From the sequence record NZ_CP054002.1: a stretch of 64,000 nucleotides of DNA; one strand, written 5' to 3'. The position numbers and the translations under genes were made by a program. Numbering within the stretch: the first letter of the stretch is position 1; each line of letters begins with the position of its first letter. This document shows, piece by piece, positions 13,577 through 31,061 of this stretch. The DNA comes from a plasmid. The notes below the pieces were generated by a model, which was not told where the DNA came from, ran no database searches, and worked only from the letters and a program-made list of their open reading frames with translations.

Positions 13577-13648
13577 AATTTTTACGGCAAAAGTAGCACG
13601 TACATAGCCTTTGAAAAATATAGAGAAGGTGATTTTTGAATTTATTAA

Positions 13649-13671
13649 AACGAACCTTTTTTTAAACTGAA
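13649..13671. repeat. inversion crossover site L: AACGAACCTTTTTTTAAACTGAA
   Basis: Exact reverse complement at 30615..30637; copy-1 and copy-2 sequences diverge exactly after 13671/51471. Confidence 0.75.
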
Positions 13672-13685
13672 GTTTTTTTCCTTTT

Positions 13686-14177
13686 TCAAGATCTATTTGC
13701 TACTTCAAAAATTCCGCTTTCTTTCCTTGCAATTTTGACTCTATCACGCAAAGTATCTATAATAGGAATATTCCGATCAATCCCATACATATATAAAATA
13801 GGATCGGAAGCATCACCTGATATAACTTTCACTGTCTTGTTGCCAAATACTAATTGCAAGAAATTTTGTTTTTCTGAATAATCAATCACTCTATATAATT
13901 CTAAATGTTCCTCTCGTCTTGAGATTATACCATGCCTGAAAATCAGTTCATCCTTAGTAATAATCCACTTTGTAGCAAACAGCGTGTCTATATATGTGTA
14001 ACACAACATAATCCAAACGACTAAAAACAGCACCATTAACGCATAGTGTACAGGCATTTCTAAATCCCAATAAATAGCAGAGAACGGGAGTAAAGATGCG
14101 ACAACAATTATCACAAAATACTTTGAAACCCAATAACCTAGTTTGGGCTTCAATGTTATAGCCGTTTGGTTATCCAT
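13686..14177 (-). CDS. membrane protein with bacterial PH (YdbS-like) domain (163 aa)
   Basis: Two N-terminal TM helices then PH-like segment. Confidence 0.45.
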   Translation of the reverse strand: MDNQTAITLKPKLGYWVSKYFVIIVVASLLPFSAIYWDLEMPVHYALMVLFLVVWIMLCYTYIDTLFATKWIITKDELIFRHGIISRREEHLELYRVIDYSEKQNFLQLVFGNKTVKVISGDASDPILYMYGIDRNIPIIDTLRDRVKIARKESGIFEVANRS

Positions 14178-14180
14178 AAT

Positions 14181-14621
14181 CTAGTTCTTTATATTAGTAT
14201 ATTGTATAGACTTTGTATTATTCTCTGAATCCGGAACGGAAACTGTATTTTGATAGACCTCTTTTCCATCCTGATACACTGTCATTTTCAATATAGCACC
14301 GGACTTACTTTTGCTAAGAATAATCCCTTGAGCAGAAATAACCTTCACTTCTTTAGAGGTTATATAAACTTTCCGTCCGCTAAAATACTCCGTTACAGAA
14401 CTTTGTTTTAGGTCTGTGTTACTTGTTTCATCTATAATTGATACGTTATCCGGATTAATAATAATAGCTTCAGCTGTATAATCATCCCCTGAAGCCTCTA
14501 ATACTACCTTATATACAGCAGATGTATTATTAAAAACAGGATCATCATCCGATCCACCACAAGAAACTAATACTAGAGTAGCACATAACGCAAACAAATG
14601 CAGCTTAATTTTTTTCATCAT
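14181..14621 (-). CDS. lipoprotein (about 147 aa from MMKKIKLHLFALCATLVLVSCGG)
   Basis: Signal peptide plus lipobox Cys; ORF-track start at 14708 probably too far upstream. Confidence 0.45.
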   Translation of the reverse strand: MMKKIKLHLFALCATLVLVSCGGSDDDPVFNNTSAVYKVVLEASGDDYTAEAIIINPDNVSIIDETSNTDLKQSSVTEYFSGRKVYITSKEVKVISAQGIILSKSKSGAILKMTVYQDGKEVYQNTVSVPDSENNTKSIQYTNIKN

Positions 14622-14825
14622 CTTTATATATTTTAAATTCAGATCCATGTGTATGTAAAGTAAACAAACCCTTATATTTTTCTTTCTAGAAATTTTCTCT
14701 GCTATCAAAAATAGCTATTGCCGTTGCCATCAATAAACCCAAATTGATCTGTTTCTACAATAAACAAATCGCTCGTTTCTGATAACTTGCTAAAATCTTT
14801 AAAAAACTGAACCTTCATATTTTTC

Positions 14826-15305
14826 TTATTTAGTCGTAGCTTTCATCCTTCCCCAGCACGTTTTCATATCGGGAGCGAGTAAAAACTCGCCAACTCTCTC
14901 CTGCCTAGCCTTTAAACTAGGTGGAACAATTGCATACTTGCATTTCAATAGTTTGGCTAACACCTCCGTACTATCTCTATCCTTATACTCCATTTTCTTT
15001 TTCTCTATCCATTTTAAATTATCTTTAGCCTTGGTGTAATCAGAGAAAAGCGGTTTTACCAAAGCACGAGGATTCTCCGCTCTTTCTATCATCTGTACCT
15101 GTTGAGCAGCTTTACTATCCAAATACAATAAGCTGTCGGAAACTGTAACATCTTTTTCGTCAAGCAACTCTATCAATTCAAACTTAAGATCAGTCCAAGT
15201 ACCGTTTTCATCGGTTTGAAGCCAATCCGCTATTGCCTTTTCATATTCAGTTGATCCACACGAAGATAAGGCAAATAATAAAACTATCAATATCCTACTT
15301 TTCAT
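14826..15305 (-). CDS. lipoprotein (159 aa)
   Basis: MKSRILIVLLFALSSCGS lipobox. Confidence 0.45.
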   Translation of the reverse strand: MKSRILIVLLFALSSCGSTEYEKAIADWLQTDENGTWTDLKFELIELLDEKDVTVSDSLLYLDSKAAQQVQMIERAENPRALVKPLFSDYTKAKDNLKWIEKKKMEYKDRDSTEVLAKLLKCKYAIVPPSLKARQERVGEFLLAPDMKTCWGRMKATTK

Positions 15306-15342
15306 ATATTATTTTTTTTATATTTTCACAAAAATACCTCTT

Positions 15343-17298
15343 TTATTCCTTCCATGCCTTATGATTATGATCTTTCGGCATGTTTTTTTCCTTATTTTTA
15401 TTGTCCGTTTCTGTCTTATTCTTTACATCTTCCAAGATCGCATTTACTTTTGAAATGATTGAAAGATAATGTTGACTAACTATTTCTTCCATTATATCAT
15501 ACTCTAATTCTTCTTTGCCATCTCCCAAATTTACAGGTTTGGAAAAAGCCGGAATATCCTTATCTATAAACTTACACATATTAAATTGTGTATTAAAATA
15601 AGGTGGTTTTCCGCCAGCGACCTTTCCGATGAAGTGACCAACACTTTGTCCGGCAACTTCACGAGCCTTTACTACTTTCTCCTTTTGCAGAGATTCGGTC
15701 ATGCTTCCAGTACCGGATTCTTGATGTGAGAACGATTCCTGTGCTTCTTTCGTTTCTCCCAAAAGATTTTCTAGATCCTTTGCTGTCTTTTCGTTACCGG
15801 TCATTCCATAGGCTTGGCTACCACAAGAAGATCGCAGGATATTTGCACTTTTCTCTCCATAATCCCGGATTGCTTGATTAAAGTCCTGTACGGCTAAGAT
15901 TGTAGCTACATTGTGTTTACGTGCTGTACCTATAAATACATCTATACCTTGCAAATTTACCGTTGGAAATTCATCCACCATAAAAACGCTCTTTTGTTTG
16001 CCGGGATTATTCATTTGCGACATGACAACGCTAGCGATACAACTAACAGGAGGAGATACAGCTTCTTTAATTGAAGGAGCATTGCCTATACACAATAGTG
16101 TAGGATGATCCGGATTAGTTATATCTAGTGAATATTCTTCTTCCGGAAGTGGTGATAGAACCCAAAAGATGTATTTATTGTTAAGCAAAACAAGCGGAGT
16201 CTGTGCGGAAGATACCGCACCAGCGGTCTGCTGCTGTGCGCCTAAACGCCATGCGGTTAACATGGAAGACATGTTTAGCGCAATTTCCGCATCCTCAGAG
16301 AGCCATTTAAAGACCAGATCACTATCTGATAATGCAAAAGCGATTACATGGGGTAAAGTTCCTATTCCCTTTGCTCGTTCTTTGTAACATTTATAAGCAA
16401 TTGAATATACATAGTTAATCGCATTGTTCGCCCAGAAATCAGTTTTTTCCTTCCATGAACTTTCAAGGTTTTTCATTAAGGTAGTAGCGATATTACGAAT
16501 AAACAAGGATTCGCTTCCTTTAGGGACATATTTTTCCGAAAGTACATTAACACGAACCGTCCGGGACATGTCTACAAAATTTATGAAAGCAAAGGCTGGT
16601 GTAGGTACATTTTTTCTCTTAAAATATTCTATACTACCGTATGCGATCCGGGACAAAATAGGTGAACCCGGTTTACTAGGATCTCCTTCCCAATCATATA
16701 CAAATCCGGCATAGTTACGCTCTGCACATTGATAGATGATGCCTTTAATCCAGCTTTCCGATTTTCCAGATCCCGGACCACCGTCAATATAAAGATTTTG
16801 CTGTGGCTTATGGATTCTAAGATTTCCTTCTACTGTTTCAAAATCAAAATAAAACTCTGATTTTTCATGTGATACACCAAAGATAGATTTATCAGATACC
16901 ACATGCCGTTTAAGGTAAAAACCGGCTGTTTGGATAACTAGTATTGTAAATCCTATAAATACTATCGGAAAAACTAATAAATTGTACCATGATAGAACAT
17001 TACTGAAGCCTAATATTAGGGCTATTGCTAAGATTAATGTAGTGGCAGTATATACATATTTCAAGGATTCATCTCTTCTCTTTTGTACAGGGAATAGGAA
17101 AGCCAACCCAGCTAATAATACTACATATAGGAATCGAAACATAATAGCTTTGCGTAAAAACTTTCCCAACTGCAATAATACAGCTGGGCTTGGTGAACAA
17201 AGATCATTCACCAAAACCCACTGAAAGATTATCACACCCCCGATTATTACGGAAAGCAATATAAAGACAAATGATAATTCCTTCTTTGCTGGTTCCAT
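15343..17298 (-). CDS. type IV coupling protein (VirD4/TraD/TraG-family conjugative ATPase, 651 aa)
   Basis: N-terminal TM helices, Walker A GGPGSGKSE, Walker B MVDEFPT, TILAVQDFNQ motif. Confidence 0.75.
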   Translation of the reverse strand: MEPAKKELSFVFILLSVIIGGVIIFQWVLVNDLCSPSPAVLLQLGKFLRKAIMFRFLYVVLLAGLAFLFPVQKRRDESLKYVYTATTLILAIALILGFSNVLSWYNLLVFPIVFIGFTILVIQTAGFYLKRHVVSDKSIFGVSHEKSEFYFDFETVEGNLRIHKPQQNLYIDGGPGSGKSESWIKGIIYQCAERNYAGFVYDWEGDPSKPGSPILSRIAYGSIEYFKRKNVPTPAFAFINFVDMSRTVRVNVLSEKYVPKGSESLFIRNIATTLMKNLESSWKEKTDFWANNAINYVYSIAYKCYKERAKGIGTLPHVIAFALSDSDLVFKWLSEDAEIALNMSSMLTAWRLGAQQQTAGAVSSAQTPLVLLNNKYIFWVLSPLPEEEYSLDITNPDHPTLLCIGNAPSIKEAVSPPVSCIASVVMSQMNNPGKQKSVFMVDEFPTVNLQGIDVFIGTARKHNVATILAVQDFNQAIRDYGEKSANILRSSCGSQAYGMTGNEKTAKDLENLLGETKEAQESFSHQESGTGSMTESLQKEKVVKAREVAGQSVGHFIGKVAGGKPPYFNTQFNMCKFIDKDIPAFSKPVNLGDGKEELEYDIMEEIVSQHYLSIISKVNAILEDVKNKTETDNKNKEKNMPKDHNHKAWKE

Positions 17299-17594
17299 TA
17301 TTCTTTATTCTTGCTAGAGAGTAATTGAACCTTATCTACACTCATAGTTACTGAAGGGACTGTATCACCAGTATCACGCTTAAAGATACCGACAGTGATT
17401 TCCCCATACACATGAACCATAGTTCCTGTTTTTAAAAACTCCGCAACCTTTGTTTCGTAATTTAAGAAACAACAGATCCACAACGTTTTTTCTTCGTTTC
17501 CCTCTTTATATTTAGTGGAAACATTGAATGAATAACCTTTCTGTGTTTTCTTGGCATCTGATCCAAGATAACCCGTAACATGACCTATAAACAT
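17298..17594 (-). CDS. ssb: short single-stranded DNA-binding protein (OB-fold, 98 aa)
   Basis: SSB-like pattern GYSFNVS...TLWICCF...GTMVHVYGEI. Confidence 0.5.
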   Translation of the reverse strand: MFIGHVTGYLGSDAKKTQKGYSFNVSTKYKEGNEEKTLWICCFLNYETKVAEFLKTGTMVHVYGEITVGIFKRDTGDTVPSVTMSVDKVQLLSSKNKE

Positions 17595-17597
17595 ACG

Positions 17598-18908
17598 CTA
17601 AAAATTTAAAGATAATTGTTTGACTTCATTTTTATTTTTTGATTCGGAAAATTGTAGGGAAGGAGTAGGATCATCCAACTTTATATTAAATATATTCTGT
17701 GCGGCAATATATATTTTCGGATCTGCATCCTTTAACGCATCAAGTTCCTTTGCAGACAGTTTATATCCCTGCTCCTTTAGGTTAACCAATTCCTTAAACG
17801 AACCGGCTAGCGCAGCAGCTAGAGCTATATTAAAAGCTGGTGATAATTTTTCATCATTCCGGGTTTCAGAAAAATCCTTGCTATCATCTACTTTTTTATT
17901 CTCTATATGCTTGCATTCTTCCTGTTGCTTTTCCTGTTCTTCCTTCTTCAATAACTCATACTTGCAGACTTCATTCAAAATCATAGTGCTAGCCTTACCT
18001 ACATCAACTAATACGGAATAGAGGAATTTAGGTTCTTTTTTGATCGCTCCGAGCCAGTTTTTTAAATACTGTGCGTTTTCTTCCCGGACTCCGGAAACGA
18101 TACCTAGAGAACGGCAAGAAACAGCAGCGGTAAATTCTGCGATTAATTCTTCTTTTGCATATTTGGGATCACCAAACATGTTTTTCATTTCACGTCCTAA
18201 ACGGGTATCTATACCGGTTGAATGTGCCATCTCATGTAACAATGTGCTATAAAATCCTTCTCCTGTATAGAATTGACCTTTAAGGGGTAAATATATCTTG
18301 TCCTCTGAAGGACGAAAAAAAGCCTTGTCAGAGAAAGAAGAAATAATAGGACATAACCATGTACCGTGTTTTATCATGTGATCCAACTCTGGCGATGAAA
18401 ACATTCCCTGCTCATCTTTCAATTTAGGACAACTAAATTTATCCTTCAATGCCTTCCATTGTTCCGGATATACTTCCGCAAAGTTTGTTTGATCAACATT
18501 GAACACGTGATAAGGTTTAGTATAAGGAATAACGGTATATTCTTTCTGCTCTTCCTTAGTCAAAGCCTTATAATCATCCATCGAAATTTTATTCCCCTTA
18601 TCGTCTTTAATCATAAAATTCCAAAATAGGACAGGAAAAGCCGATGCTCCTTTGTTTATGTGAAGCCCTTGTTTCTTTGCTTGCGGAAAAGTCATATATA
18701 CAGGTGTCTGGAAACTACGTTCCTCTTGAAGAAGAAAAAGCATGAAGGAATTGATTCCATTATAAACACGCCCATCAATATTTTGTGGTAATCCATATCC
18801 TGTTGTTGTAAACCAAGGTTTATGCCAATCCGCATCGACTTCCGTAAGTTTCTTAACCATAAGATCCGCAAATTTTTGCAGAGCCTTATCATTTGCCTGA
18901 CCATCCAT
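17598..18908 (-). CDS. ardC: ArdC-like antirestriction protein (ArdC-N ssDNA-binding domain + HExxH zincin domain, 436 aa) with C-terminal shared module
   Basis: WHKPW...NGINSFML ArdC-N signature, LLHEMAHSTG metalloprotease motif, C-terminal FKELVNLKEQGYKLS module. Confidence 0.7.
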   Translation of the reverse strand: MDGQANDKALQKFADLMVKKLTEVDADWHKPWFTTTGYGLPQNIDGRVYNGINSFMLFLLQEERSFQTPVYMTFPQAKKQGLHINKGASAFPVLFWNFMIKDDKGNKISMDDYKALTKEEQKEYTVIPYTKPYHVFNVDQTNFAEVYPEQWKALKDKFSCPKLKDEQGMFSSPELDHMIKHGTWLCPIISSFSDKAFFRPSEDKIYLPLKGQFYTGEGFYSTLLHEMAHSTGIDTRLGREMKNMFGDPKYAKEELIAEFTAAVSCRSLGIVSGVREENAQYLKNWLGAIKKEPKFLYSVLVDVGKASTMILNEVCKYELLKKEEQEKQQEECKHIENKKVDDSKDFSETRNDEKLSPAFNIALAAALAGSFKELVNLKEQGYKLSAKELDALKDADPKIYIAAQNIFNIKLDDPTPSLQFSESKNKNEVKQLSLNF

Positions 18909-18911
18909 GAC

Positions 18912-19100
18912 TTATTGATAAAGGTGTTCATTTTCATATTTTAGCAACCATTCAGCAGCGTTTTCCGCATTCGGGCTAACTCCTTCAGCTTGCATATCCG
19001 CAACGTAGAGAGCCGCTAAATCTTCTTGAGCTAATAAAAATTCAAGATCGTCAATCTCTCCAGTCTGATTCTTTTCTACCAATTTGTTGTAATCTTCCAT
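18912..19100 (-). CDS. small hypothetical protein (62 aa)
   Basis: Intact ORF tightly coupled to ardC; identical copy at 62994..63182. Confidence 0.4.
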   Translation of the reverse strand: MEDYNKLVEKNQTGEIDDLEFLLAQEDLAALYVADMQAEGVSPNAENAAEWLLKYENEHLYQ

Positions 19101-19150
19101 GATATTTATTTTTAAGTGATAACATTTTTACTTTCGGAAAAATCTATTAA

Positions 19151-20962
19151 TTATAAATCGGCAAACATTTTATTTACCGTATTGGCGAGAGGACGCTTTA
19201 GATCTTTTTCTGCACTTTGTTGACCTTGTGCTAGCTTAACATCTCCGAGCGTATTAGCAGAGCCTTTCAGATTAAATATCTTCTGAACGGCTATCATCGT
19301 ATTGCCAGATGCAGTTTCATTCAAAGACTGAATCAACTCTTTGGAAGGTTGATAGCCTTGTTCCTTCAGTTGTGACATCTTTACAAAATCGCCTTTCTCT
19401 ACTGCTTCTTTAAATTCTTTATCTAGTTCCGGAGAAACCTTAGCACTAGCAGGATCAGCATTAAGCTCTACCTTTGCTTCTTTGGATTCTTCCTTTGCTT
19501 GTGTTACTTCTTCCGCTTTTTGCACTTCAGGTTTCATCCCAAATAGTTTTTCTATAACGATAGCTTGCGTCTGATCAATCTTTGTATCTTGTCCCAAACC
19601 TCTAATAACTTCCTCTGAAGGCTTGTAACCTTCCTCTTTCAAACTAGCTATTTTTTCATAGTCATTCTTGACAACGGCTTCTCTTAACTCCTTGTCAAGA
19701 TCTCGATCAGGAACAGGATCCTTACCCGTTACTTTCTCCTGATATTGTTCCCGGATCTTCTCGACTTTAAAGCCTTCTTCTTTCAATTCCTTTTCAGTTG
19801 TACCTTTGGCGATTATTCCTTCTTTTTCTAACATATCCCCAGCCTTTAACCTAATGCGTGCTTCAAGATCATAATTATAGTTTTTATCCGGATTTTCATC
19901 TTTCAGATAAGATAGGTATTCCTTATGTTCTGTGGCAAAATGGCTGTTTATTAATTGCTCATACCTTTTATCCTTCAACTCGTCTATATCGATTTTTCCG
20001 GTACGCTGCATATCCTTTAGCTTATCATTAAGATACTCTTTATCCTTTGCCATTTCTCTTGCCTGTAAAATCTGCTGTGCCTTTGTTTCCGATATTTTCT
20101 GGATGTTTGAGAAAGCATATCCTTTCTTATCCGGAAGCATAGCTATATCTGTAATTATGTAACCTTCAGGAGTGTGGATCATTTTGTTATCTAAAGAATG
20201 ACCATTCGCTAAAAGATACTTATCTGCTGCGGTCAATTCGTAATCTCCAATTTTAGCAGGAACAGACAATTCTTTTTCCGAACGTACCACCACAGCGTTG
20301 AGATCCTTATCGACCTGAAGAAGTATATCTCCTTTTTTTGTTGACAAGACTATCACATTGCCATCAAGTAGATCTTGCTTCTGTTGCTTCGATAATTTCT
20401 TTCCGTAAATGCGATCCGGTATGGTTAACGCTTCCTTCCTATATATAATAGAAGTACCGTGTTCATGCAACCGAACTTTAGCTGGTTTACCATTGATATC
20501 CATTAATCCGGATAATACACCCTTCTCTAACTTTGTGCCTTTCCCGTCTAACGAGTAACCATTTTGCAAAGCATACTCATATAGTTCTTTTCCGGTATAA
20601 CAGATTTTATTTTTATGATCGATCACAGTAAAACGATCTTTGGCATCATTTTTTAGATCACCCCAGTTAACAATATCAACCCCTTCATTTTTTAATACGC
20701 TTTTATAGTCGGGAGATAAAGCCTGATCCCGATTAAAGAACTGGCAAACACGATCCATAGAAGCCTTTTCCGCAGATAAATCCGGTTCTCGCTTTGTGTG
20801 TGAACGTATCTTATCCATATCGATACGAAATACTTCGTCATTCCGGGTAAAAAGCAAAGAACCCTTGTTATAGGCTTCTTTGTAACCTAAACTTTCCGCA
20901 ATCGCCCTAAATTGCCCGACATTATTATATTGATATTCTGTTAGAACCTCTTGTAGCTTCAT
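19151..20962 (-). CDS. DUF4099/DUF3945-like conjugative-element protein (603 aa, tentative family call) carrying two copies of the shared C-terminal module
   Basis: Two tandem modules (VVKNDYEKIASLKEEGYKPS..., VEKGDFVKMSQLKEQGYQPS...TMIAVQKIFNL) at C-terminus. Confidence 0.45.
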   Translation of the reverse strand: MKLQEVLTEYQYNNVGQFRAIAESLGYKEAYNKGSLLFTRNDEVFRIDMDKIRSHTKREPDLSAEKASMDRVCQFFNRDQALSPDYKSVLKNEGVDIVNWGDLKNDAKDRFTVIDHKNKICYTGKELYEYALQNGYSLDGKGTKLEKGVLSGLMDINGKPAKVRLHEHGTSIIYRKEALTIPDRIYGKKLSKQQKQDLLDGNVIVLSTKKGDILLQVDKDLNAVVVRSEKELSVPAKIGDYELTAADKYLLANGHSLDNKMIHTPEGYIITDIAMLPDKKGYAFSNIQKISETKAQQILQAREMAKDKEYLNDKLKDMQRTGKIDIDELKDKRYEQLINSHFATEHKEYLSYLKDENPDKNYNYDLEARIRLKAGDMLEKEGIIAKGTTEKELKEEGFKVEKIREQYQEKVTGKDPVPDRDLDKELREAVVKNDYEKIASLKEEGYKPSEEVIRGLGQDTKIDQTQAIVIEKLFGMKPEVQKAEEVTQAKEESKEAKVELNADPASAKVSPELDKEFKEAVEKGDFVKMSQLKEQGYQPSKELIQSLNETASGNTMIAVQKIFNLKGSANTLGDVKLAQGQQSAEKDLKRPLANTVNKMFADL

Positions 20963-20967
20963 GACAA

Positions 20968-22050
20968 TTATTTTAATAATTCAGCGGACAATATATATTC
21001 ATTCAATATAGATAATTTCATATGCCTTCCCCCACCTCTTTCAAACATTTCGATCTCAAAAACCTTATCATCCGGGATAGTGAACTTATTGAATGCTAGG
21101 ACAAAGCGATTTTGGCTTTTGCCCAATATCTTTTTATCAAAGTCTTTTTGTTCTACCGGATCATACGGAACTTCCTGCTGGATAGAGTTCTTAACCTTCT
21201 TCTGATCACGAAGGAAGCATTTAATAAAATCAACGTCATAATCTATATTTGAGAAGTTTTTTATATCAAATACAAAAAACATGAAATCATCTTTTACATA
21301 TAGGTTTGCAAGGGACATCTCAAACTTATTTTTTATAACTCCCAAGCTGAAGATATTACGCTTTTTATAGTGCAGTTTATTGATAAGATTATCCATCTCT
21401 ATGCTATTTACATCAATGTGTGCAATATATTTGCGACCATCGTCAAAGTTGTAAGAGTAAGTAAGAGCATGGTCTTTAAACAAGGTAATTTCATAGGTAT
21501 TCAGATCTTTATCGATAACAAACAGATTAGAAGGTTCAAAGGCATCAAAAGTTGTACCAACTTTAACCATATTATTATAATACTCAACCCCGAAAACTTC
21601 TTCATTTCCTTGTTTCAGATATAACACATCTGCTGGAAAAAACATTTCTGTAGTATTGTTATTATTGACTATTACGTTATAACAACGTGATCTATCCACA
21701 TCACCGGCATATACGATATTTCCGCAGTGATCCGTCATTCCCGGTAACAGATAGGATATTTTATAAGAATAGACATTCCCGTTTGTACAAACTATGATAA
21801 GGTTTGTCGTTCCTGAAAAATCTTCTTCCTGTGCCGTTATGCGGACAACATTAGGAACATTATCCACCCGTTCCACTTTTACATAATCTTCACGACCATA
21901 CGAAATGTCACTTACTTGTGCAGGAAGTACTATATGTTTCGTTTTATCAAACGAAACATAAATTGTTTGGGAGTCCAGTTCTTTTTTTTCCTGTGCAGAA
22001 ATGGAGAATGGAACACAAAACATGATTAATATAAAAAGCAATGTTTTCAT
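20968..22050 (-). CDS. traN: TraN-like conjugative transposon T4SS protein (signal peptide; about 360 aa from MKTLLF)
   Basis: Position after traM, signal peptide MKTLLFILIMFCVPFSISAQ; C-terminal frame differs from copy 2 (G5 vs G4 run). Confidence 0.55.
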   Translation of the reverse strand: MKTLLFILIMFCVPFSISAQEKKELDSQTIYVSFDKTKHIVLPAQVSDISYGREDYVKVERVDNVPNVVRITAQEEDFSGTTNLIIVCTNGNVYSYKISYLLPGMTDHCGNIVYAGDVDRSRCYNVIVNNNNTTEMFFPADVLYLKQGNEEVFGVEYYNNMVKVGTTFDAFEPSNLFVIDKDLNTYEITLFKDHALTYSYNFDDGRKYIAHIDVNSIEMDNLINKLHYKKRNIFSLGVIKNKFEMSLANLYVKDDFMFFVFDIKNFSNIDYDVDFIKCFLRDQKKVKNSIQQEVPYDPVEQKDFDKKILGKSQNRFVLAFNKFTIPDDKVFEIEMFERGGGRHMKLSILNEYILSAELLK

Positions 22051-22226
22051 TTTACAAAACCAATAAAAATATTTATAATCCAAAGCAGAACGAAACAAGA
22101 TATTAAACTATACATCAGTACTTTCATTTCTGCTATCTTTTTCCCTTTAGAGCGTTCTATAAAGAACCTATAAGCCAAAAATACAGTAGCTACAGCTACC
22201 ATAAAATTAAGTATATCAATTATCAT
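22047..22226 (-). CDS. small membrane protein (59 aa) between traM and traN
   Basis: ATGA/TAATG overlaps with neighbours; intact in both copies (59875..60054). Confidence 0.3.
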   Translation of the reverse strand: MIIDILNFMVAVATVFLAYRFFIERSKGKKIAEMKVLMYSLISCFVLLWIINIFIGFVK

Positions 22227-23535
22227 TATAATGCTTCAATTAGTTGGGTTAAAGGATTCTTTTTCTTTGGTTCATTCTGCTGCATCTGCATTTCTCTATA
22301 CAGACGTTCTATTTCAGCTTCTTCTTCCTCTCTCTTTTTTCTGTCTTCATTAGTTTCTTCCTTGATATACATATTATAGTTAGCTTTTAAATGAACCTTT
22401 ACTTGAGAAAGGCTTTGATTTAAAATTTGTCTAGTAACCTGTGTAGTGGCTGTGATCGCACTAGTTACCTCACTTGTTACTGTGCCAATAGAAGAAATCG
22501 GAAGCTGCACGCTTGAAGCAAGCCCTGTTCCATTTTTCGAGCAGCTTCAGCTTTCATGTTATTGGGTAAATTCAATCCCTCAATCGCATCAGAATCATAA
22601 ATAGTAAAAGCGACAGGACTTATATATTTCCCATATCGTATGTTCTCTACCGTAATTTTCAAACGAGTAGAGCCGACACTAGCATTTCCGTAGAAGATCG
22701 TATTTGCAGGGATCTCAACGCCACCAACCCATAAAGGCTCTAACAAGCGCATCCGGACAGCACTTCCACTAACAATGGTCTGATCTCCATAAATAGCAGC
22801 TTTGATAAGATTGACTTTTTGGTCAATAGTAAACTGTGACCGGCGACGCCGTTTTCCATTTTCCACTATAAAAGTCGGCTTTGAAGCTTTCTCAACTTTA
22901 GGAACAGAATCATTTACTTTCGGAAAAATATTCTCTTGAGATTTCTCTATATCTTTTCCTGATGCTTGATCCTGATATTTCTTTCTCATTTCATCCCGGA
23001 ATCTTGCATTTTCTTCTAGCTCTTTGCGTATTCTTTCCTCTTTCTTTGCTTCCTTGACTATCTGATTAAAGGTTTCTTGATCCTCAATATCATTTAGTTG
23101 TTGGCGCATTTTATCAGAAAATGCACTGTTAGATTTTTTTCCTCGCTCCTTGTATTCGCTAGTAACTTCGTCCAATGGATCTTTCTTCATTTTTTCAATA
23201 CGAGCTTTCATTTTCTCGTTGTATTCGTCTTCGGATGTCTGCATTTCAAAATAGAAATCGCTTCCTTTTACTTGTGATTTTTCCAATTCACGTTTCTTAC
23301 GAGCAGCTTCTTCTTGTTCACGTTTATAAGCATCTACCTTATTAGCGATCTTCTTTTCTCCTTCTGTGTCCGGTTCAAGAAAAGCCTGATTCACTTCTTC
23401 TGTATTGGATGCTGATTCAGCCGGTTTTTCTTTTTTACCAAAGAAAACTATTACAAACAGTACGCCCAAAAGCAGAGGTACTAACATTAACAATTTGTTT
23501 TTGTCCTTCAACGCTTCTCTTAAAAAGTTTCCCAT
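22226..23535 (-). CDS. traM: TraM-like T4SS protein; apparent frameshift near 22500 in this copy (intact 436-aa version at 58565..59875)
   Basis: N-terminal TM, long coiled-coil K/E-rich middle; ORFs 22477..23535 + 22226..22510 join to copy-2 protein. Confidence 0.55.
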
Positions 23536-23542
23536 AGCTCCA

Positions 23543-24172
23543 TTATTTTAATTTTTCTTCATCTGTTATTTCTCGTGGTTCCGAATATCGAACGTCCCAG
23601 CTTTCGATTTTAACACCGTGAGAGTTTTCACGTGATCGAGATACATCATATAGAGTAAAGTTCACAGAAATATCACGTGCTACGCTCCCCCTAGCACGAT
23701 AGCCGGTTTGCGTAAACAGTATATCCCCGGATATCGGAACTGTTTGCATATTGATATGTATATCCTTGATTATAACGCCATAGCGTATATTTTTCTGAAT
23801 CAAAGAATTAAGCATATTAATATCGTTATATTCGTTGTAAAGCTCTTTTCCTCGATTACCAATCAAATTAAGAGCTAATGTTACGTTATTCTCATAAGTG
23901 CTTTCATCGAAGGAGTACCACAGCGAAACAAATGTTTTGATATGATTTTCATATTCATACTTTCGCATCGCTGCGGATTCAATGGCTGCAACATCGTAAA
24001 CCTGTCCTGAAGTATCAAGTACTAAAGCCTTCGTATAAGCCGCATCTATCTTGTTTGACAAATAGAAGAAACAGACAGTAAATGCAATACCCATAATCAG
24101 ACAACAAGAAGATGCAACAATCACAGTTGTTTTAAAAGCCTGATCCACTGTTTTAAATTTTGTAAGATTCAT
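23543..24172 (-). CDS. traK: TraK-like T4SS protein (209 aa)
   Basis: Size, N-terminal TM, gene order J-K-M. Confidence 0.6.
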   Translation of the reverse strand: MNLTKFKTVDQAFKTTVIVASSCCLIMGIAFTVCFFYLSNKIDAAYTKALVLDTSGQVYDVAAIESAAMRKYEYENHIKTFVSLWYSFDESTYENNVTLALNLIGNRGKELYNEYNDINMLNSLIQKNIRYGVIIKDIHINMQTVPISGDILFTQTGYRARGSVARDISVNFTLYDVSRSRENSHGVKIESWDVRYSEPREITDEEKLK

Positions 24173-24178
24173 ATTTAT

Positions 24179-25231
24179 TTATTCTTCGTTATCTATAACA
24201 CTTTTACCTAATGAAGCAGCAGCCCCTACATTTGTAGCCCCCCCTGCTATCGCTGATCCTGCAATCGCCATCGTTGCAGCAGCAGTTACAATAGATACCG
24301 TTTTAGAAATGATTCTACCGGCATCACCATGACCGACTATCTTACTTGCCAACCAGAAACAACAACAATAAGAACCGATCAAAGCAAGATCCATGCCTAA
24401 ATATTGTAGCTGTTTTGTCGCTTCATCTACTGCGTTGAATGCGTCAGAATCATAAATTGACTTAAATGTAAACCACATTATCTGATTTAAAATATTAATC
24501 ACAGTAAATACCATACCAACGGAACACAGTGTACCAAACCAATTAGACAGCTGCTTTTGGAATACCGGTAGAATGGAAAAAGCAAAAACGAAGGGACCTA
24601 ATATGACAAGGATCTTTACAATGACAACGCCCAAACCCAATATGATAATTTGTACAATCCCGACCAGCAGTGCGGCTAGAGCATGTAAGAGCATTGCTGC
24701 GAAATTGGCAGGATTTAATATTTGGGAGATTTGTTTCAATGTAGATGCACTTTCATCTATTTTATTACCTTGATCTATATTTTGTAGTTCTTTATTCATA
24801 GCACCTTCCGGATCTTCCCCCGCAGCGACTTCCGCTTCAAGTGCCGTTTTTTCATTATCGGCTATCATGGTGTGCTGTTCTTCCGCTGATCTGTCTAGAA
24901 AAGCCGCAAACTCCTGTGCCCGGACTGAACTTAAAGATGTTGCTTCATTTATTACTTCAAGGGTTCCAACGACAGTTTTTGCGATAGGTGTATATAGCGA
25001 AAGACAGAATATTAAAGCAAAACAGCGAGCTATTTCCATCAAATCCGGAAACTTATTTTCATCCGATGTTAAAAGCTGACTAACACCATGATATAGGTAA
25101 TTATAAGCTATATTACAGATGAAACAAATAACTGCTACACCAAGCGCAATTACCGTCATTTGCGCAGTTAATTCTGTTGTAAGGGAATCATTAATCTGCA
25201 ATCCCCATAAAAAAGTATCTTGTCCGTTCAT
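24179..25231 (-). CDS. traJ: TraJ-like polytopic T4SS membrane protein (VirB6-like, 350 aa)
   Basis: Multiple TM helices, position after traI. Confidence 0.6.
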   Translation of the reverse strand: MNGQDTFLWGLQINDSLTTELTAQMTVIALGVAVICFICNIAYNYLYHGVSQLLTSDENKFPDLMEIARCFALIFCLSLYTPIAKTVVGTLEVINEATSLSSVRAQEFAAFLDRSAEEQHTMIADNEKTALEAEVAAGEDPEGAMNKELQNIDQGNKIDESASTLKQISQILNPANFAAMLLHALAALLVGIVQIIILGLGVVIVKILVILGPFVFAFSILPVFQKQLSNWFGTLCSVGMVFTVINILNQIMWFTFKSIYDSDAFNAVDEATKQLQYLGMDLALIGSYCCCFWLASKIVGHGDAGRIISKTVSIVTAAATMAIAGSAIAGGATNVGAAASLGKSVIDNEE

Positions 25232-25239
25232 AAGGCTAA

Positions 25240-25824
25240 TTAATTAGTATATCGACTAAAAGCAGATAAATTTCCGCTATAATATGTTTTCCCTACATGT
25301 TTTCGACTTGCATCTTTTATGATCTCACTTCTTACTATTTCATTAAAAGATTTCATTTCAGCAGAAGCCGTTTCTAAGGCTTCTCTTACCTGTCCGACAA
25401 AGGACATTCTTCCCTCACTATTCATGCTGAAATAGTCGGAAACAGTAGCAACCTTAAATAATAGATCTGTGCTCAAATTAAGGTTTACCGTAACTTGTTG
25501 GAAGTTTAAAAACTTTAAACAATGATAGCTACCGCCTATATTCATATAAAAACGGTAATCACTACTTAGACAAGCTACATCATCCAACAGTTCAGCAAGT
25601 TCTACTAAAGATTGTAGTTGGCGTAGTTGGTCTATCTTTTGTAAATTTTCTCGTATATGTGCAGCATCAATCATTTCATTAAGCTGCTTAACCCATTGCG
25701 CTGCATTCGCTCCCCATTCGCCAAGGTTCATTCCATGTGAGCCGGATCATTAACAACCCATTGCGCACTAGCCTTTTGAACAGAAAAAGAGCTACTTAAC
25801 AGCAACACAGAAAAAATAAGAGTA
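25240..25824 (-). CDS. traI: TraI-like secreted T4SS protein; N-terminus frameshifted in this copy (intact 199 aa at 56262..56861)
   Basis: Copy 2 has signal peptide MKIKILLFFSVLLLSSS...; copy-1 ORF 25240..25731 lacks it. Confidence 0.45.
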
Positions 25825-25852
25825 TCTTTATTTTCATAATATTATAAATTTA

Positions 25853-26071
25853 TTATCGCAGAATAAACACTATCGCAAATATCAAAGCCACAAACCAAGC
25901 GACTAGATATGTTCTTGCATTATCTTTCTTTGTAGCTAAAGCCCAGACTACAAAAATCAGAGAAACGCCTAACATTGCAGCGGTGATATACCCTGCCACA
26001 CTAAAAGACGTATTGTTAAATTCTCCCGACCATCCTTTTATCTGGTTCAATCCTTCTACAGCATCATTCAT
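25853..26071 (-). CDS. small membrane protein (72 aa) downstream of traG
   Basis: Hydrophobic C-terminal half; identical copy 56028..56246. Confidence 0.4.
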   Translation of the reverse strand: MNDAVEGLNQIKGWSGEFNNTSFSVAGYITAAMLGVSLIFVVWALATKKDNARTYLVAWFVALIFAIVFILR

Positions 26072-26089
26072 ATTTTTTTCTCCTTTCTT

Positions 26090-28669
26090 CTAAATACCGG
26101 TTAATAGCAGCATAAGTAGATCCTGTTTCCTCAAAAAGCTGTTTGAGCCTAACCACAGTCGATTGTCTTGAATCAAAGCGACAGCGGCAAATTCAGATAC
26201 TTCATTGCGAAAAACATAGGTTTCGTTTCCCAATTTAATGAAGAACTCTCTCCACTTGATCTCATCATCCCTATTTTGCAGACTATCTATCATTACTAGT
26301 TCTTCTTCTGAAATAGAAAGAATATCTCGCAGATTGGGCAACTCCTTTCTATAACTTGAATGATCCAGTATTACTTTAGTATCACAGTTTATAAGTATTG
26401 AATCCTTGATCGCCGGTGGACAGTTCTTCAGGAACAGTACATTTTGGGCAGCTATCGTTATAGCCCCGTCTTTTTTACGGAATGTACGATACAAATAGGC
26501 GATAAAATCACCAAACTTATCATCACTTAAAAAGTCTAGGGCTTCATCGATAATCAATTCCTTATTAACTCCTTCACGCTTCTTGATCTTATCGATAACC
26601 ATTTGAAGCGTGATAATCGCTACCAAAGGAAAATACTCCTTCTTTGCTGCGTCTTCCATATCAAACGCAATTAAATCATCGTTAACTATATCAATATTTT
26701 CAGTTGCGTTCAACAAAAGGATAGTTCTCCATCCGTGTAAGGTTCTAGTAGTAAAAGCACTTCCTCTATCTCAAATCTACGTTTTTCAAAGTCAGTCATT
26801 TTGTAAATAAATACATCTCGCAAGAAATTCCGGTATTCTATCAGATTAGGAAAAATCCTTTCATTTGTTCCATCAACAGAAGAATTATTTACATACTCAT
26901 AAAATGCGATCACTGATTTTCTAAGAATAGCTTTCTCGGTGGGATCGATAGGCTTATTTTGTTTCCAGATATAGGATAAAAGAGCACAGATCGTTTTAAT
27001 AAGATCCTCGGCTGCTTCTGCATCTGAAGTATCAATATAAATATATCTACCATTCCGATCACGTTCACACAAGAACGGGTTAAAAGCAAACTGTTTCTGA
27101 TTTGTAGAATCAAAATATTTACCTCGGTGCAGGCTAATCATAGACCTGTAAGATCCACCGATGTCAATAATTGTAATATCATTACCCAAAGAATAAGACT
27201 GATAAATATAGTTGTTTAGCCAAAAGACTTTCCGGAGCCGGACGGACCGATTACTATTTTATTTCTATTGTTTAAAGCCTTGTTATTCCATAAATTTATC
27301 AATGCAGGATTTCCGAATCGGTCATTATACAAATGCCCTTGCAGATCAGAAATATAAATACTATCTTTTTGCAAATAACAAATCGCCTGTTTGGTCGTAT
27401 TGATAAATCCCCTATAATTGCTCCGAGCATTCCCCGGTATATTAGAAAAAATAAATTGCACAACTCCGCATTCTCGACATAACAAGAACTTTGGTTCATA
27501 AAACTAAATCCCTGCTGTGCCAATGAAATTTTCCGAATTAGAGAAGAACGATCCGGATCATTGATAATCACATTAAAAGCTGTATAAGCTGTTTGATAAT
27601 CAAAATCCGTAATTTCTTTACAGAAAAGTTCTTGCTGTTTTGCTTGTCTTTAGCCGGAGGATAAAAGTTAGTCAAATAGTTTAGCCCGTTTTTTTCAGCA
27701 TTAATAGCCGTTAGCGTAGTATCTGTATCTGTTATTTCTATCACAACATTTACAATGTGATCGAAAGGCAAACCTAGTCCAACCGGGTACAACATAGAAC
27801 ATTTAGACTGTATATTCTCCGGAAGCTCAATCGTACTTCCATACGCTTTTGATTTACCCGTATTGGGTACATTCAGCTCATAAAGATTTTCCCCTTCCAC
27901 GGTAAGAGAAAGCATCGCTAAATATTCTTGTCCAACCTTCAGATCACCGCTAGGAGTTACCATAATTGGGCTAACTGTTTCTTGAGTAGCGTCTTTTGTT
28001 GGTTTAGCATACGAGAGATTAAGATAATCAAAGACAGCATTATTTAAGTCTTTACTATCCATCTTCTTTATCTCAAATTGAGTTATAGAAGATAACCCAT
28101 TTCAAATTCAAGATTTTCGGTTCAATCTCTGATAACCTTTCTTCATAGTTCTTGTAGGGCTGTTTAAAAGGATAATTGAGTTTTTTAAGCAGCGATGTAT
28201 TAGAAGCCTTTTTTCGCACTCCCTTTTCAAATCTGTATTGGCAAAAGTGATATACAAATTTGTATAGCAGTTTATTATTTGCTTGTTATTAAAGTGTTTA
28301 ATACTTTCCGCTTTCAATGGATTAACAGAAAAGTCATTGTTCTTATACTGGCTTACATAGTAAAGCACTGCTGATGCACCACCGTTGCAGGAGGTAACAT
28401 CTTAAAAAGCCCCTCTAACCTCTCATGTATATATTTTGCATCTTCCTGCGAAAGAGTAAATACTTCCGGAAGAAACAATCTGTATCCAATGGTTAAATCT
28501 CCGCTACCGTTTACTATAACGCTATCCGTTATGGTCTGGATCGGTAGTACAGCCGAAAGATCTATTGATTTATCAGATATAGGAACTTCAGAAGGACGCA
28601 TAAAAGTATGGCGAGTAATGTAATGACACCACACAGTAATAATGCCGATATAATAATAAATCCTATCAT
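26090..28669 (-). pseudogene. traG: TraG-like VirB4-family T4SS ATPase split by at least 6 frame breaks in this copy (intact 871 aa at 53420..56035); probably sequencing artefact
   Basis: ORFs 28353..28634, 28108..28368, 27568..28062, 27299..27571, 27216..27485, 26710..27189, 26090..26716 tile the copy-2 protein. Confidence 0.7.
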
Positions 28670-28766
28670 TTTATTTTGTAATTAGTTACCACATAGTAGA
28701 TATAAACTCTCTGCAAGAAAAAGCGACAGCCTTAATCTGTATCACGTATTCCGCAGGATTTCAAGA

Positions 28767-29075
28767 TCATTTCTGCTTCATTATAAAATTGAATACCTTA
28801 TGTTTATCTATTATCTGTTTAGGGGTTGCAGATCTAACCGATAAGCCAGTTAGATAATCCGGATTGCCAGCTTTATGTTCCCGTTTTAGGTTCTTGAATA
28901 AGATACCTGAAGCAAAGAATATAGCTCCCATGACACTAACTATGATTACCGGATGCACATGCTTAAATATGCAAACAATTATAATCAAAGCATTTGCCAA
29001 CATAAATAGACCAAATTGTCCCGACGTTAAGCCAAAGAACTTAATTGGTCTATTTATCTTTCTTATAGTCCTCAT
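28767..29075 (-). CDS. traF: TraF-like small membrane protein (102 aa)
   Basis: Two TM segments, directly upstream of traG. Confidence 0.45.
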   Translation of the reverse strand: MRTIRKINRPIKFFGLTSGQFGLFMLANALIIIVCIFKHVHPVIIVSVMGAIFFASGILFKNLKREHKAGNPDYLTGLSVRSATPKQIIDKHKVFNFIMKQK

Positions 29076-29078
29076 TAA

Positions 29079-29360
29079 TCAGATAATAAGGAAAGCTACC
29101 ATAATAACCGCAACCGCAATGATCCAGCCGAGCAGATACTCCTTGGCGTGGGGATTATTCGTTGCAAGGGAATAGATCACAAATACTAAAGCTATGCCAA
29201 GCACGGCAGCTAATACATACTTTGCGATATTAAGAATCGTATCAGAACCTTCTTGCGCTTTCGATTCAACATCGGACAAACTGCTAATTTTTAATGCGCT
29301 TTGGGCTTCTACAACTTGAGGAACAACAACAAAAGTCAGCAGGAAAAGCCCTAAAATCAT
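29079..29360 (-). CDS. traE: TraE-like small membrane protein (93 aa; signal peptide + TM)
   Basis: MILGLFLLTFVVVPQVVEAQSAL; position before traF. Confidence 0.45.
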   Translation of the reverse strand: MILGLFLLTFVVVPQVVEAQSALKISSLSDVESKAQEGSDTILNIAKYVLAAVLGIALVFVIYSLATNNPHAKEYLLGWIIAVAVIMVAFLII

Positions 29361-29470
29361 AATAATACGCTTGTGTACACTAACAAAATCTACACTCTTT
29401 TCAAAACTTGTACCATAATCTTAAAATTTTAATTGTTATTTTATACATGTTATTTATATATCAATCTTGC

Positions 29471-29863
29471 TTAAAGCGGAAAAATCAACACTTTCATATT
29501 GACAAAAACATCATCTGATTTTTCCGAAAGTACTTGATGCTGGAATGGTGGTATCTTACCAGCATAATAGTACGCCCGGTTTGAAATATACATATCCGCT
29601 ATCTCTCTACTTAATTCTTCATCATCTGAAAGATCCTTTTGAAAAACTATTGTTATGCGTGGAGATAAAACTAGATCAGAATCAGATTTTTCTTCTTCAA
29701 CTGATAGTGAAGCTGTACACTCCGTTTTCTTTTTACTTCCGGAAAAATAGACCAATCCTAAAATTAGAATTGAAACAATAACTATCGTAACTATCGCCAG
29801 ATCAAATAATGAATAATTAGTGGCTAGATATTCAGTCATTTGTATATTTATATAAGCGACCAT
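29471..29863 (-). CDS. membrane protein (130 aa; C-terminus differs from copy 2 by an indel)
   Basis: N-terminal TM; copy 2 at 52224..52634. Confidence 0.35.
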   Translation of the reverse strand: MVAYINIQMTEYLATNYSLFDLAIVTIVIVSILILGLVYFSGSKKKTECTASLSVEEEKSDSDLVLSPRITIVFQKDLSDDEELSREIADMYISNRAYYYAGKIPPFQHQVLSEKSDDVFVNMKVLIFPL

Positions 29864-30053
29864 ATTAGTATAAATATTACTAATGCAACGATATACGTAA
29901 TTATAGCTTCTTTCATTTTCTCATGATTAGTTATTATTTTTTTATAACCGCAAGACCTGCACAGACAAATCCGACACCGGCTAGCATTTCGCCACATTGT
30001 TTGAATAAGTCAATCAATGCGCTTACATCAGCTGATAATAATATCATAATCAA
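29848..30053 (-). CDS. small membrane protein (68 aa), frameshifted in this copy (A7 vs A8 run); intact at 52033..52239
   Basis: Comparison of copies. Confidence 0.3.
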
Positions 30054-30613
30054 TAAATAAGGACTTTAACACCAAGATTCCAGACTGTATTCCATTTGCT
30101 TGCATAGCTAAACGGACTCCAATACTGCTTAACACGTCCAAGTATCGCAACTCGTGGAGATACAAAGTATTCTAATTCAGGCTCGATCTTTAAACCAAGT
30201 AAGAAATCATACTTATTATCCTGCCTCTTGTACGCTTCTACACCTGTAAAAAGACCTAGACCTAGGCTAAAATAAAGTGAAGAAAGATTTGTCGCAACTG
30301 TTTTGAAATAAGCAGCATCAATATAGTAATCTTTTGCTGTAGAGCTAAAAGAAACTATCGTTGGAACTTCCGCAGTATTGCTTTCATAACTGTAGTTATA
30401 AGACTTTTCAAAATAGTTCAAACCTATTTTCCAGTAAGTTGTTCGACTCCTATACTTTGATACTGAAAGGTTTAAGTTAGTATTATTCCTACCAAAAATA
30501 TTCAATCCATAGTTTACTTCTAGGGCTGAAATACCTACATAATGCCGTTGTGCATAAACACTATGTGTACATGCACATAACACTAGTAATAAAGTTAATT
30601 TTAATAATCTCAT
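30050..30613 (-). CDS. outer-membrane beta-barrel-like protein (187 aa), first gene of tra block
   Basis: Signal peptide, alternating hydrophobic pattern, C-terminal aromatic (LIY). Confidence 0.5.
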   Translation of the reverse strand: MRLLKLTLLLVLCACTHSVYAQRHYVGISALEVNYGLNIFGRNNTNLNLSVSKYRSRTTYWKIGLNYFEKSYNYSYESNTAEVPTIVSFSSTAKDYYIDAAYFKTVATNLSSLYFSLGLGLFTGVEAYKRQDNKYDFLLGLKIEPELEYFVSPRVAILGRVKQYWSPFSYASKWNTVWNLGVKVLIY

Positions 30614-30614
30614 A

Positions 30615-30637
30615 TTCAGTTTAAAAAAAGGTTCGTT
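30615..30637. repeat. inversion crossover site R (reverse complement of site L)
   Basis: TTCAGTTTAAAAAAAGGTTCGTT, 1 bp from tra block start codon. Confidence 0.75.
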
Positions 30638-30711
30638 ATATTGAATGCAAAATTCAAATAAATATTTAAAACAGCAAAAATTTTGTGGTTAAATATTGTA
30701 ATTTTTATGTT

Positions 30712-30910
30712 TTCTCCCATAATTCAGGCTGAACACATTTCCAACCAGCGGCAGCTAAATAGTCCCGGATTCGTTCTTCAGGAACTTTGCCCCCTTTTGA
30801 AAGGTCGCTTTATCATATTTCGCCTGAATAGGTGAACGTAGGGAATTTACATACCACTTTCTTTGTTTAATAAGCTCGCGGAAAGAATCTTCCAAAGTCA
30901 GTTTATCCAT
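30712..30910 (-). CDS. small hypothetical protein (~66 aa if one frameshift in a G5 run is corrected)
   Basis: MDKLTLEDSFRELIKQRKWY...; alternative frame continues ...PEERIRDYLAAAGWKCVQPELWEKT. Confidence 0.3.
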
Positions 30911-30934
30911 TTCTTTAATATTAAAAAATGTATA

Positions 30935-31060: not shown

Positions 31061-31061
31061 A

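Follow-up and report, generated by a model that had tools for sequence, protein, structure and literature searches.

Inverted crossover sites bracket an entire conjugation operon found in both orientations in a Bacteroides plasmid, with a Gin/Hin-like serine recombinase as the likely catalyst

The DNA invertases Gin, Hin, Cin and Pin, known from the Mu G segment and the Salmonella H segment, are serine recombinases of ~190–200 aa with a C-terminal helix-turn-helix (HTH), and are encoded beside one of their two sites. These sites are inverted dyads with A-tract half-sites and a 2-bp crossover, as in hixL (..GAAAACC/AA/GGTTTTT..), and the Mu G segment flips coding DNA against a promoter that stays in place outside it. 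In Bacteroides fragilis, the serine invertase Mpi (FinA) acts in trans and inverts numerous small chromosomal segments that carry promoters. Here, we analyzed a 64,000-nucleotide stretch of the plasmid sequence record NZ_CP054002.1 (hereafter the window), in which a 17-kb transfer (tra) operon lies between inverted repeats beside a gene for a 199-aa serine recombinase and is present in both orientations. The locus resembles the Gin/Hin systems in the size, domain order and gene position of the recombinase and in its dyads of the form ..AAAACG/AA/CGTTTT.., and it resembles the Mu G segment in that the candidate promoters lie outside the DNA that flips. It shares with Mpi a serine invertase in Bacteroides, but here the enzyme is plasmid-encoded, lies by its own site pair and would leave the promoter outside.

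The 23-bp sequence AACGAACCTTTTTTTAAACTGAA occurs in exact copies at 13649–13671 (+), 30615–30637 (–) and 51449–51471 (+) of the window, and was matched in none of 100 dinucleotide-preserving shuffles. Self-BLAST aligns positions 1–13671 with 37808–51471 (0 mismatches, 11 indels), and positions 51430–64000 with the reverse complement of 30656–18089 (5 mismatches, 29 indels). The window is a concatemer of ~1.7 units of a circular Bacteroides plasmid of ~37.8 kb, and unit 2 is unit 1 with the segment between the inverted 23-bp repeats flipped. An earlier sequence-only reading had described both the exact 23-bp inverted repeat and the reversed fusion of the unit 2 flank to the far end of the block, and both descriptions hold; the gap of 75 bp that it gave between the recombinase gene and the core is 72 bp when measured from the start of the gene. 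The repeat continues imperfectly outward for a further 19 bp (14/19 bases identical), giving 42 bp in total. The two sites cut the circle into a tra arc of 16.9 kb and a backbone arc of 20.9 kb, and on a circle a flip of one arc and a flip of the other are one event. Units 1 and 2 differ nearly only by indels and many of their genes are frameshifted, which fits an error-prone long-read assembly.

Both orientations are also found in public assemblies. We refer to the unit 2 state, in which the invertase gene is next to traO, as the common state, and to the unit 1 state, in which it is next to the end of the operon carrying the PH-domain gene (PH-end), as the rare state. The common state accounts for ~95% of public assemblies. 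A metagenome scan for the core returned 23 loci, 22 of them in the common state; the sole minority locus, the short-read contig L005, stems from a relative with ~90% identity and follows unit 1 collinearly across the invertase/PH-end junction, and its sub-lineage is also represented in the common state (L016). By exact-protein look-up, the invertase is indexed in ~23,500 blocks of a public assembly collection. The longest 25 of these contexts comprise 21 invertase/traO junctions, two invertase/PH-end junctions (L058 and L053) and two aberrant arrangements, and L058 (NCBI GCA_024792835.1) is 100% identical to the window across 6.6 kb. The contexts of the PH gene are in the common state in 23 of 26 cases, as are all 48 contigs of two further lineages. 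The other junction of the rare state, in which a small conserved open reading frame (ORF), orf68, is followed by the site and traO, is found in two contigs: L067, assembled by MEGAHIT and collinear at 99.7% with window positions 33107..27559, and L085, from a lineage with an 85% identical orf68. In addition, the reciprocal junction of unit 2 that the sequence-only reading had predicted beyond the window end exists and is abundant in public data (e.g., L001, L021 and L025). Contig ends near the site were not relied on as signs of mixed orientation within a sample, as homopolymers and low coverage explain them equally. The exact 23-mer had no match in one-genome-per-species contigs, and a degenerate site scan returned one relevant metagenome-assembled genome (MAG; L061), a site whose context is unrelated (L062) and a match in a Saccharibacteria MAG (L060) that is likely due to chance.

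The crossover site is a dyad of 14 + 2 + 14 bp with the Hin/Gin-like consensus AAAACG/AA/C(C/G)TTTT. Site L, AATTTATTAAAACG/AA/CCTTTTTTTAAACT, lies at 13639–13668 (+) with arms matching at 10/14 positions, and site R, CATTCAATATAACG/AA/CCTTTTTTTAAACT, lies in inverted orientation at 30618–30647 (–) with arms matching at 8/14. The unit 2 copy of site L (51439–51468, +) forms the recombinant junction with the traO end. Arm match reaches 11–13/14 in the sites of relatives and ranges from 8/14 to 13/14 across lineages, and a match of at least 10/14 is found at only 0.13% of plasmid positions. The A-tract half-sites and central AA are reminiscent of hix. The breakpoints had been placed exactly at the 23-bp core; the identity is indeed exact, but the functional site is the 30-bp dyad around the central AA, and the 23 bp cover only a part of it, namely 4 bp of the left arm, the 2-bp core and the 14-bp right arm, together with 3 extra bases.

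Aberrant junctions point to the position of exchange. In L051, ...TTATTAAAACG AA is joined to GAATAAATAAATATG, and the partner is a pseudo-site upstream of the traK-like gene, TTATAGATAACG/AA/GAATAAATAAAT (24170–24198, –), which reads ATAGATAACG/AA/GAAT... in the junction comparison. L052 (...AAAACG AA CGTTACC...) and L064 (...GATATG AA CCTTTTTTT-traO) form a reciprocal product pair, whose partner is a pseudo-site GATATG/AA/CGTTAC within traM of a GC-richer conjugative element resembling a conjugative transposon (CTn); this plasmid–CTn fusion was apparently made by the invertase acting at the pseudo-site. In L048, foreign DNA is joined as ...GTAAGG AA CCTTTTTTT. All of these junctions break at the same dinucleotide, consistent with exchange at the AA at 13653–13654. 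Together with the independent assemblies and the site pairs conserved in other lineages, they support the site-specific inversion proposed from the sequence, and we consider it very probable that the inversion is real and recombinase-mediated.

Several further variants touch the sites themselves. L051 is a natural deletion derivative that arose from recombination between site L and the pseudo-site and lacks traO through traJ, and the foreign part of L048 is unrelated DNA with Fic and SPASM genes. CP103200.1 (L001) lacks 17 bp at 17497–17513, equivalent to window positions 13657–13673 and corresponding to the site L right arm, leaving AACGAACC/TGAGATT; its orientation should be locked by this deletion, which also lengthens its annotated TraO ORF. 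A scaffold N-gap falls inside the crossover site of L055. In L042 (GCA_024788765.1, JANUJI010000003.1, 3440–3560), two T4CP-to-PH-gene ends stand head-to-head in a palindrome, with the join 15 bp past the PH stop codon. We rejected it as a recombinase product, as its junction lies 15–30 nt from the AA and no full site is present; the palindrome is probably a foldback or an assembly artefact.

The recombinase gene lies at 12977–13576 (–) in unit 1 and at 50777–51376 (–) in unit 2, and the two copies encode identical proteins. The protein matches PF00239 over residues 3–135 (E 7e-39) and HTH_7 over residues 156–188 (E 5.8e-6), and its catalytic Ser9, in the motif GYARVST, aligns with Ser9 of Gin. 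Its nearest solved structures are those of Gin (4m6f, E 6e-39; 3uj3, E 4e-38), and the resolvase structures follow at 3.6e-24 for gamma-delta, with a range of 4e-24 to 6e-22 for gamma-delta and Tn3. By these comparisons, it is an invertase-type (Gin/Hin-like) small serine recombinase, in line with the Hin/Gin assignment made earlier. The accompanying likening to Mpi-type enzymes fared less well: the top NCBIfam model is indeed the Mpi family (NF009949), but the score of 86.1 bits lies below the curated equivalog cut-off of 272, and we rejected the protein as an Mpi orthologue. The adjacency of this gene to the site in every lineage examined argues that the 199-aa protein would be the catalyst of inversion. 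Bacteroides is not known to have a Fis protein, and no Fis or enhancer element was identified for the invertase in an analysis made without an enhancer model.

Plasmids with invertases 45–70% identical to that of the window show the same arrangement: the invertase gene and the first tra gene diverge, and a site lies just upstream of the ATG of the tra gene, such that the first tra start codon is within 1–22 nt of one site in every lineage. In a lineage with a 70% identical invertase, the site is AAACGAACGTTTTTTTAAACTG and 24/24 contigs are in the common state, and in lineages with a 67% identical invertase the site is likewise upstream of the first tra gene. The 117-kb Bacteroides ovatus plasmid NZ_CP041396.1 (invertase 56% identical) carries GTTCATTAAAACGAACGTTTTTTTAAACT at 42675 and an inverted copy at ~31090, which divide it into arcs of 11.6 kb (backbone) and 105 kb. 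In Phocaeicola salanitronis pBACSA01 (47%), the site GTAC(A/G)TAAAAACG/GT/CGTTTTATAAAAC lies at ~40267 with its inverted partner at 27712, and in pBF9343 of B. fragilis NCTC 9343 (45%), whose invertase may be the FinB of Patrick et al. 2003, AGTACAGAAAAAGG/GT/CG... lies at ~36560 with its inverted partner at 11708. In all four lineages (window family, B. ovatus, pBACSA01 and pBF9343), the members of the site pair face in opposite directions within a single monomer, and in the latter three the second site adjoins the rep/mob backbone. The sites of the B. ovatus, 70% and 67% lineages contain AAACGAACGT, the complement of which would fit the ARACGTWCGT repeats, with an ACG-WW-CGT-like core, that Mpi reportedly acts on.

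At least 27 of the 31 complete plasmids of the pBF9343 family are in the reference orientation. The closed plasmid CP103278.1 (L090) of this family is flipped precisely at its own sites, reading hyp/AGTACAGAAAAAGGGTCG/ATTAATGAAAC...ATG of the first tra gene, where hyp denotes a hypothetical gene. In the same plasmid, a cfxA mobilisable transposon follows the first tra gene and the DUF4134-to-traJ block is internally inverted (14414–31007). About 14 pBF9343-family plasmids that break at site R were considered as flips and rejected, as different cargo adjoins the site: in NZ_CP081919.1 (L088, 6000–11011) and ~13 others, variable cargo including TetR, aminotransferase and MACPF protein genes directly adjoins the inner flank of site R, which therefore marks a cargo hot spot. 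The 98-kb plasmid pMMCAT, whose TraO is 47% identical, was rejected as a member, since it has no invertase beside traO and its upstream genes read straight into traO.

The boundaries of the flipped segment coincide with those of the transfer operon. In unit 1 this operon, assigned from Pfam matches, occupies 13686–30613 (–), and in unit 2, by self-comparison, it runs flipped from 51473 to the window end at 64000 (+), with traO at 51473–52036. Its genes all read in one direction, in the order traO, small membrane proteins, VirB4/TraG-like ATPase, VirB6-like TraJ, traK-like gene, TraM, TraN, DUF3945, ArdC, SSB, type IV coupling protein (T4CP), lipoprotein and PH-domain protein. The traO ATG (30613) is 1 nt from one core, which leaves no room for a promoter inside the flipped segment at traO, and 14 nt separate the stop codon of the PH gene (13686) from the other core. 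What flips is therefore a 17-kb operon without a promoter of its own, which must be transcribed from whichever of the two fixed flanks lies upstream of traO. The candidate promoters lie in the fixed flanks, and in this the locus differs from a classical invertible promoter (inverton), which has its promoter inside the DNA that flips.

The two fixed flanks differ in what they conserve. On the site R side, the Bacteroides-type promoter-like element TTTG-N19-GAATTTTG (30648–30678, –) abuts the site and points into the invertible segment. Its form, TTTG-N19-GA(A/C/T)TTTTG, and its spacing are conserved in the window family and B. ovatus even where the flanks have diverged, and we regard it as a candidate promoter on the strength of this conservation; the usual spacing in Bacteroides promoters is 19–21 nt. 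Every R flank also holds a unit that reads inward. In the window this is orf68 (30705–30910, –), which lies behind the element, reads toward site R, is 68 aa long elsewhere and is frameshifted here. In L067 and L085 it stands directly upstream of traO in the same direction, and a homologue is present in the R flank of the B. ovatus plasmid; orf68 and its counterparts have no Pfam domain match. In pBACSA01 and pBF9343, the R flank is instead a mobC–relaxase–parA–hyp operon that ends at the site. An 18-bp AT-rich tandem repeat (2.8 copies, 30961–31010) lies between a perfect TATCTTTG –7 box (~31031–31038, –) and the start of orf68, and may be the operator of a promoter reading toward site R. On the site L side, the sole conserved feature of the spacer is a Bacteroides-type –7 box (TAnnTTTG), which reads on the other strand and lies shortly before the invertase start codon. 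Five diverged lineages have TACTTTTG or TACATTTG in this position; the box of the window, TACTTTTG at 13588–13595 (–), would belong to the invertase's own promoter within the fixed spacer. No terminators were detected in a scan near the sites, and an E. coli sigma-70 promoter scan gave matches at chance level, that consensus being uninformative on Bacteroides promoters.

On balance, we favor an explanation in which the invertase flips a promoterless tra operon that is off in the common orientation and on in the rare one. The Gin/Hin-like enzyme would recombine the two inverted 30-bp dyads through an exchange at their central AA that is staggered by 2 bp, and thereby flip the tra arc relative to the arc with rep, par, mob and the invertase gene; tra transcription would then be supplied by whichever fixed flank the operon faces. 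In the common orientation (unit 2), traO would face the invertase spacer and the operon would be off or basal, and in the rare orientation (unit 1), traO would lie behind orf68 and the TTTG-N19-GAnTTTTG element on the Rep side and would be on. From the conserved R-flank element with its inward-reading unit, set against an L spacer with only the invertase box, we infer this assignment of the two states. In flipped pBF9343 and pBACSA01, the first tra gene would come to lie behind the mobC–relaxase–parA operon. In the rare orientation of the window plasmid, the invertase gene would lie downstream of the operon and codirectional with it, with no terminator detected, and read-through could speed the return flip. 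This arrangement suggests an orientation-dependent supply of invertase, which would fit the ~95:5 bias; such feedback would not apply to pBACSA01, in which the flipped neighbours are divergent. The parts of this explanation stand at different strengths. Inversion probably switches tra expression, and that the rare state is the on state is a judgement that is close to even and leans slightly in its favor, drawn from promoter-like motifs and gene direction.

Several observations weigh against this explanation or parts of it. The –7 box of the R-side element begins with G, where the consensus has T. The L spacer of the window and of some variants contains TTTG-N17-GATTTTTG facing traO, which may be a weak promoter, such that the common state would not be fully off. 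Gaps within the operon (e.g., 18909–19150 and 29864–30049) could hold internal promoters. A second serine recombinase gene (34004–34615, 203 aa, PF00239) lies between the iterons and ParA and could encode an alternative catalyst; its product may be the multimer resolvase. CP103278.1, the sole closed flipped plasmid, has a disrupted tra region, and the mixed-orientation concatemer of the window need not be a single real molecule. An alternative is that the polarity is reversed, with the common orientation on through a promoter in the 72-bp spacer and the rare one off, or that both flanks drive the operon under different regulation. In its favor are the traO-facing element of the window, the broken tra region of CP103278.1 and the consideration that a widespread conjugative plasmid might be mostly transfer-competent. 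We consider this unlikely, as near-identical plasmids have G, T, A or C at the position of the final G of the traO-facing box, the box is absent from the L spacers of the B. ovatus, 67–70% identity, pBACSA01 and pBF9343 lineages, its 17-nt spacing falls outside the usual range, and it is the R flank that conserves a promoter-like box with an inward-reading gene or operon. The variable base is window position 13638 (and 51438), the last of the traO-facing TTTG, and the T-run varies in length as well; such variation might tune basal tra expression.

A different objection accepts the inversion but denies it a role in transcription. The flip could instead serve replication or copy number, as in the yeast 2-micron plasmid, in which Flp turns a replication fork around; it could determine the end and strand of the tra arc (with ssb and ardC) that enters the recipient first from oriT; or it could be a tolerated by-product of an enzyme used chiefly for multimer or cointegrate resolution or for cargo capture. 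The sites split the circle with the iteron origin 2.3 kb from site R and about opposite site L, the window is a mixed-orientation concatemer, the recombinase makes fusions and deletions at pseudo-sites, and in pBF9343-family plasmids variable cargo adjoins site R on its inner side, all of which such roles could accommodate. Replication or resolution leaves unexplained, however, why one site is 1–22 nt from the first tra start in every lineage and the other just past the last stop codon in the window plasmid; moreover, resolution requires direct repeats but the sites are inverted, the origin-to-site geometry of pBACSA01 is far less asymmetric, and concatemer contigs are common in long-read assembly. 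We regard these roles as rather improbable. That no inversion takes place in cells, and that the window records a chimeric join at a short inverted repeat, is hardly credible. The window contig is indeed error-prone and concatemeric, and the related NCBI assembly L042 has an odd palindromic junction, but all four junction types are present independently of the window contig, the two minority junctions recur in short-read and NCBI assemblies that are unrelated and in sister lineages of 85–90% identity, the flip of a closed plasmid from another lineage falls exactly on that plasmid's own sites, and the site pair is conserved across 45–100% invertase identity.

Conjugation is costly and is usually restrained by repressors, quorum signals or inducers. 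A whole-operon flip against a fixed promoter would, if true, be a distinct heritable route to a small donor subpopulation. We hold it evenly poised whether a dedicated serine invertase acts as the master phase switch of conjugation in this Bacteroidales plasmid family, to which pBF9343 of the B. fragilis type strain also belongs. On that reading, the operon would stay uncoupled in most cells, a small subpopulation would flip it behind the promoter on the rep/mob side and turn into donors, co-transcription of the invertase would reset the state in the window plasmid, and the enzyme would now and then fuse the plasmid to other conjugative elements at pseudo-sites. The plasmid is widespread and among the most often assembled human gut plasmids, and its variants carry erm, tet(X)-like and cfxA genes, so the orientation ratio could govern the rate at which resistance and other cargo spread among gut Bacteroidales. 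Metagenomic reads give this ratio directly, so the frequency of the donor state would become measurable in vivo. The flip also explains contig breaks, N-gaps and mixed-orientation concatemers at the locus, and a compact site/enzyme pair inverting 17 to >100 kb in Bacteroides could serve as a genetic tool.

On Pfam and NCBIfam matches, and by its near-identity to B. fragilis CP103200.1 and CP103219.1, the element is assigned as a Bacteroides conjugative plasmid. The backbone arc carries a Rep_3-like initiator, iterons, the second serine recombinase, ParA, MobC/relaxase, erm and tet(X)-like cargo, two AbiEii genes, a Toprim protein and the 199-aa recombinase. The Rep gene and iterons occupy 31628–33050 (+), recognized from tandem repeats and a faint Rep3_N match on an intact homologue, and the 32-bp iterons (32869–33050) form the putative origin. 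Genes split by frameshift here and intact elsewhere include those for the VirB4/TraG-like ATPase (26090–28634; 871 aa elsewhere), TraM (22226–23535; 436 aa), Rep (31628–32832; 397 aa) and the relaxase (36940–38356), as well as orf68; this looks like long-read homopolymer error rather than pseudogenes. As compared with CP103200.1, the window has a 2.8-kb insertion at 2710–5497, the region of an Erm-type rRNA methylase gene (2675–3532) and a Tet(X)-like FAD monooxygenase gene (3745–4911). Three ~190-bp segments (8141–8324, 9640–9830 and 10928–11118), 84–92% identical to one another, sit at the 3' ends of the AbiEii-307, Toprim protein and AbiEii-405 genes, suggesting either a C-terminal module common to the three or an intergenic cassette present in several copies. 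A 1.3-kb segment with two small ORFs is enclosed by a 45-bp direct repeat whose copies (6276–6320 and 7620–7664) match exactly, and a 22-bp near-repeat (34479–34519) lies within the second serine recombinase gene.

We found no description of tra-operon inversion in Bacteroides plasmids in the searchable literature, outside which most subscription papers lie, and the known systems nearest to it each match in part. The shufflon of R64/IncI plasmids is likewise a plasmid-borne programmed inversion tied to conjugation, but there a tyrosine recombinase, Rci, works on many sfx sites and rearranges only the C-terminal exons of pilV, thereby setting recipient specificity; with a serine recombinase, two cognate sites and a whole operon flipped, the window system does not belong to that class. 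In the yeast 2-micron plasmid, a pair of inverted FRT sites likewise divides the circle into two arcs, the two isomers are present together and one repeat has the origin close by, but the recombinase Flp is a tyrosine enzyme, its repeats measure 599 bp and the flip serves copy-number amplification. The beta recombinase/six system of pSM19035 and the Bin/Sin systems comprise plasmid serine recombinases able to invert large segments; unlike the window system, they serve mainly multimer resolution and have accessory subsites and long inverted duplications, with no link to a tra-operon boundary. A res-type multimer-resolution system is likewise not what was found, since the sites are inverted rather than direct within the monomer in all four lineages. 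If read-through holds, the E. coli fim switch with FimE offers a parallel in that recombinase supply follows switch orientation and biases one state, but fim uses tyrosine recombinases and a 314-bp element that carries the promoter, and the feedback proposed here is inferred from gene order. As compared with Gin and Hin, the segment measures 17 kb (~105 kb in the B. ovatus plasmid) rather than 1–4 kb, and holds a whole one-directional conjugation operon rather than alternative tail-fibre or flagellin genes, in a Bacteroidales host. The mechanism, Hin/Gin-type inversion, is known; what sets the locus apart is the scale of 17 to ~105 kb, the target, a whole conjugation operon that amounts to one plasmid arc, and the host.

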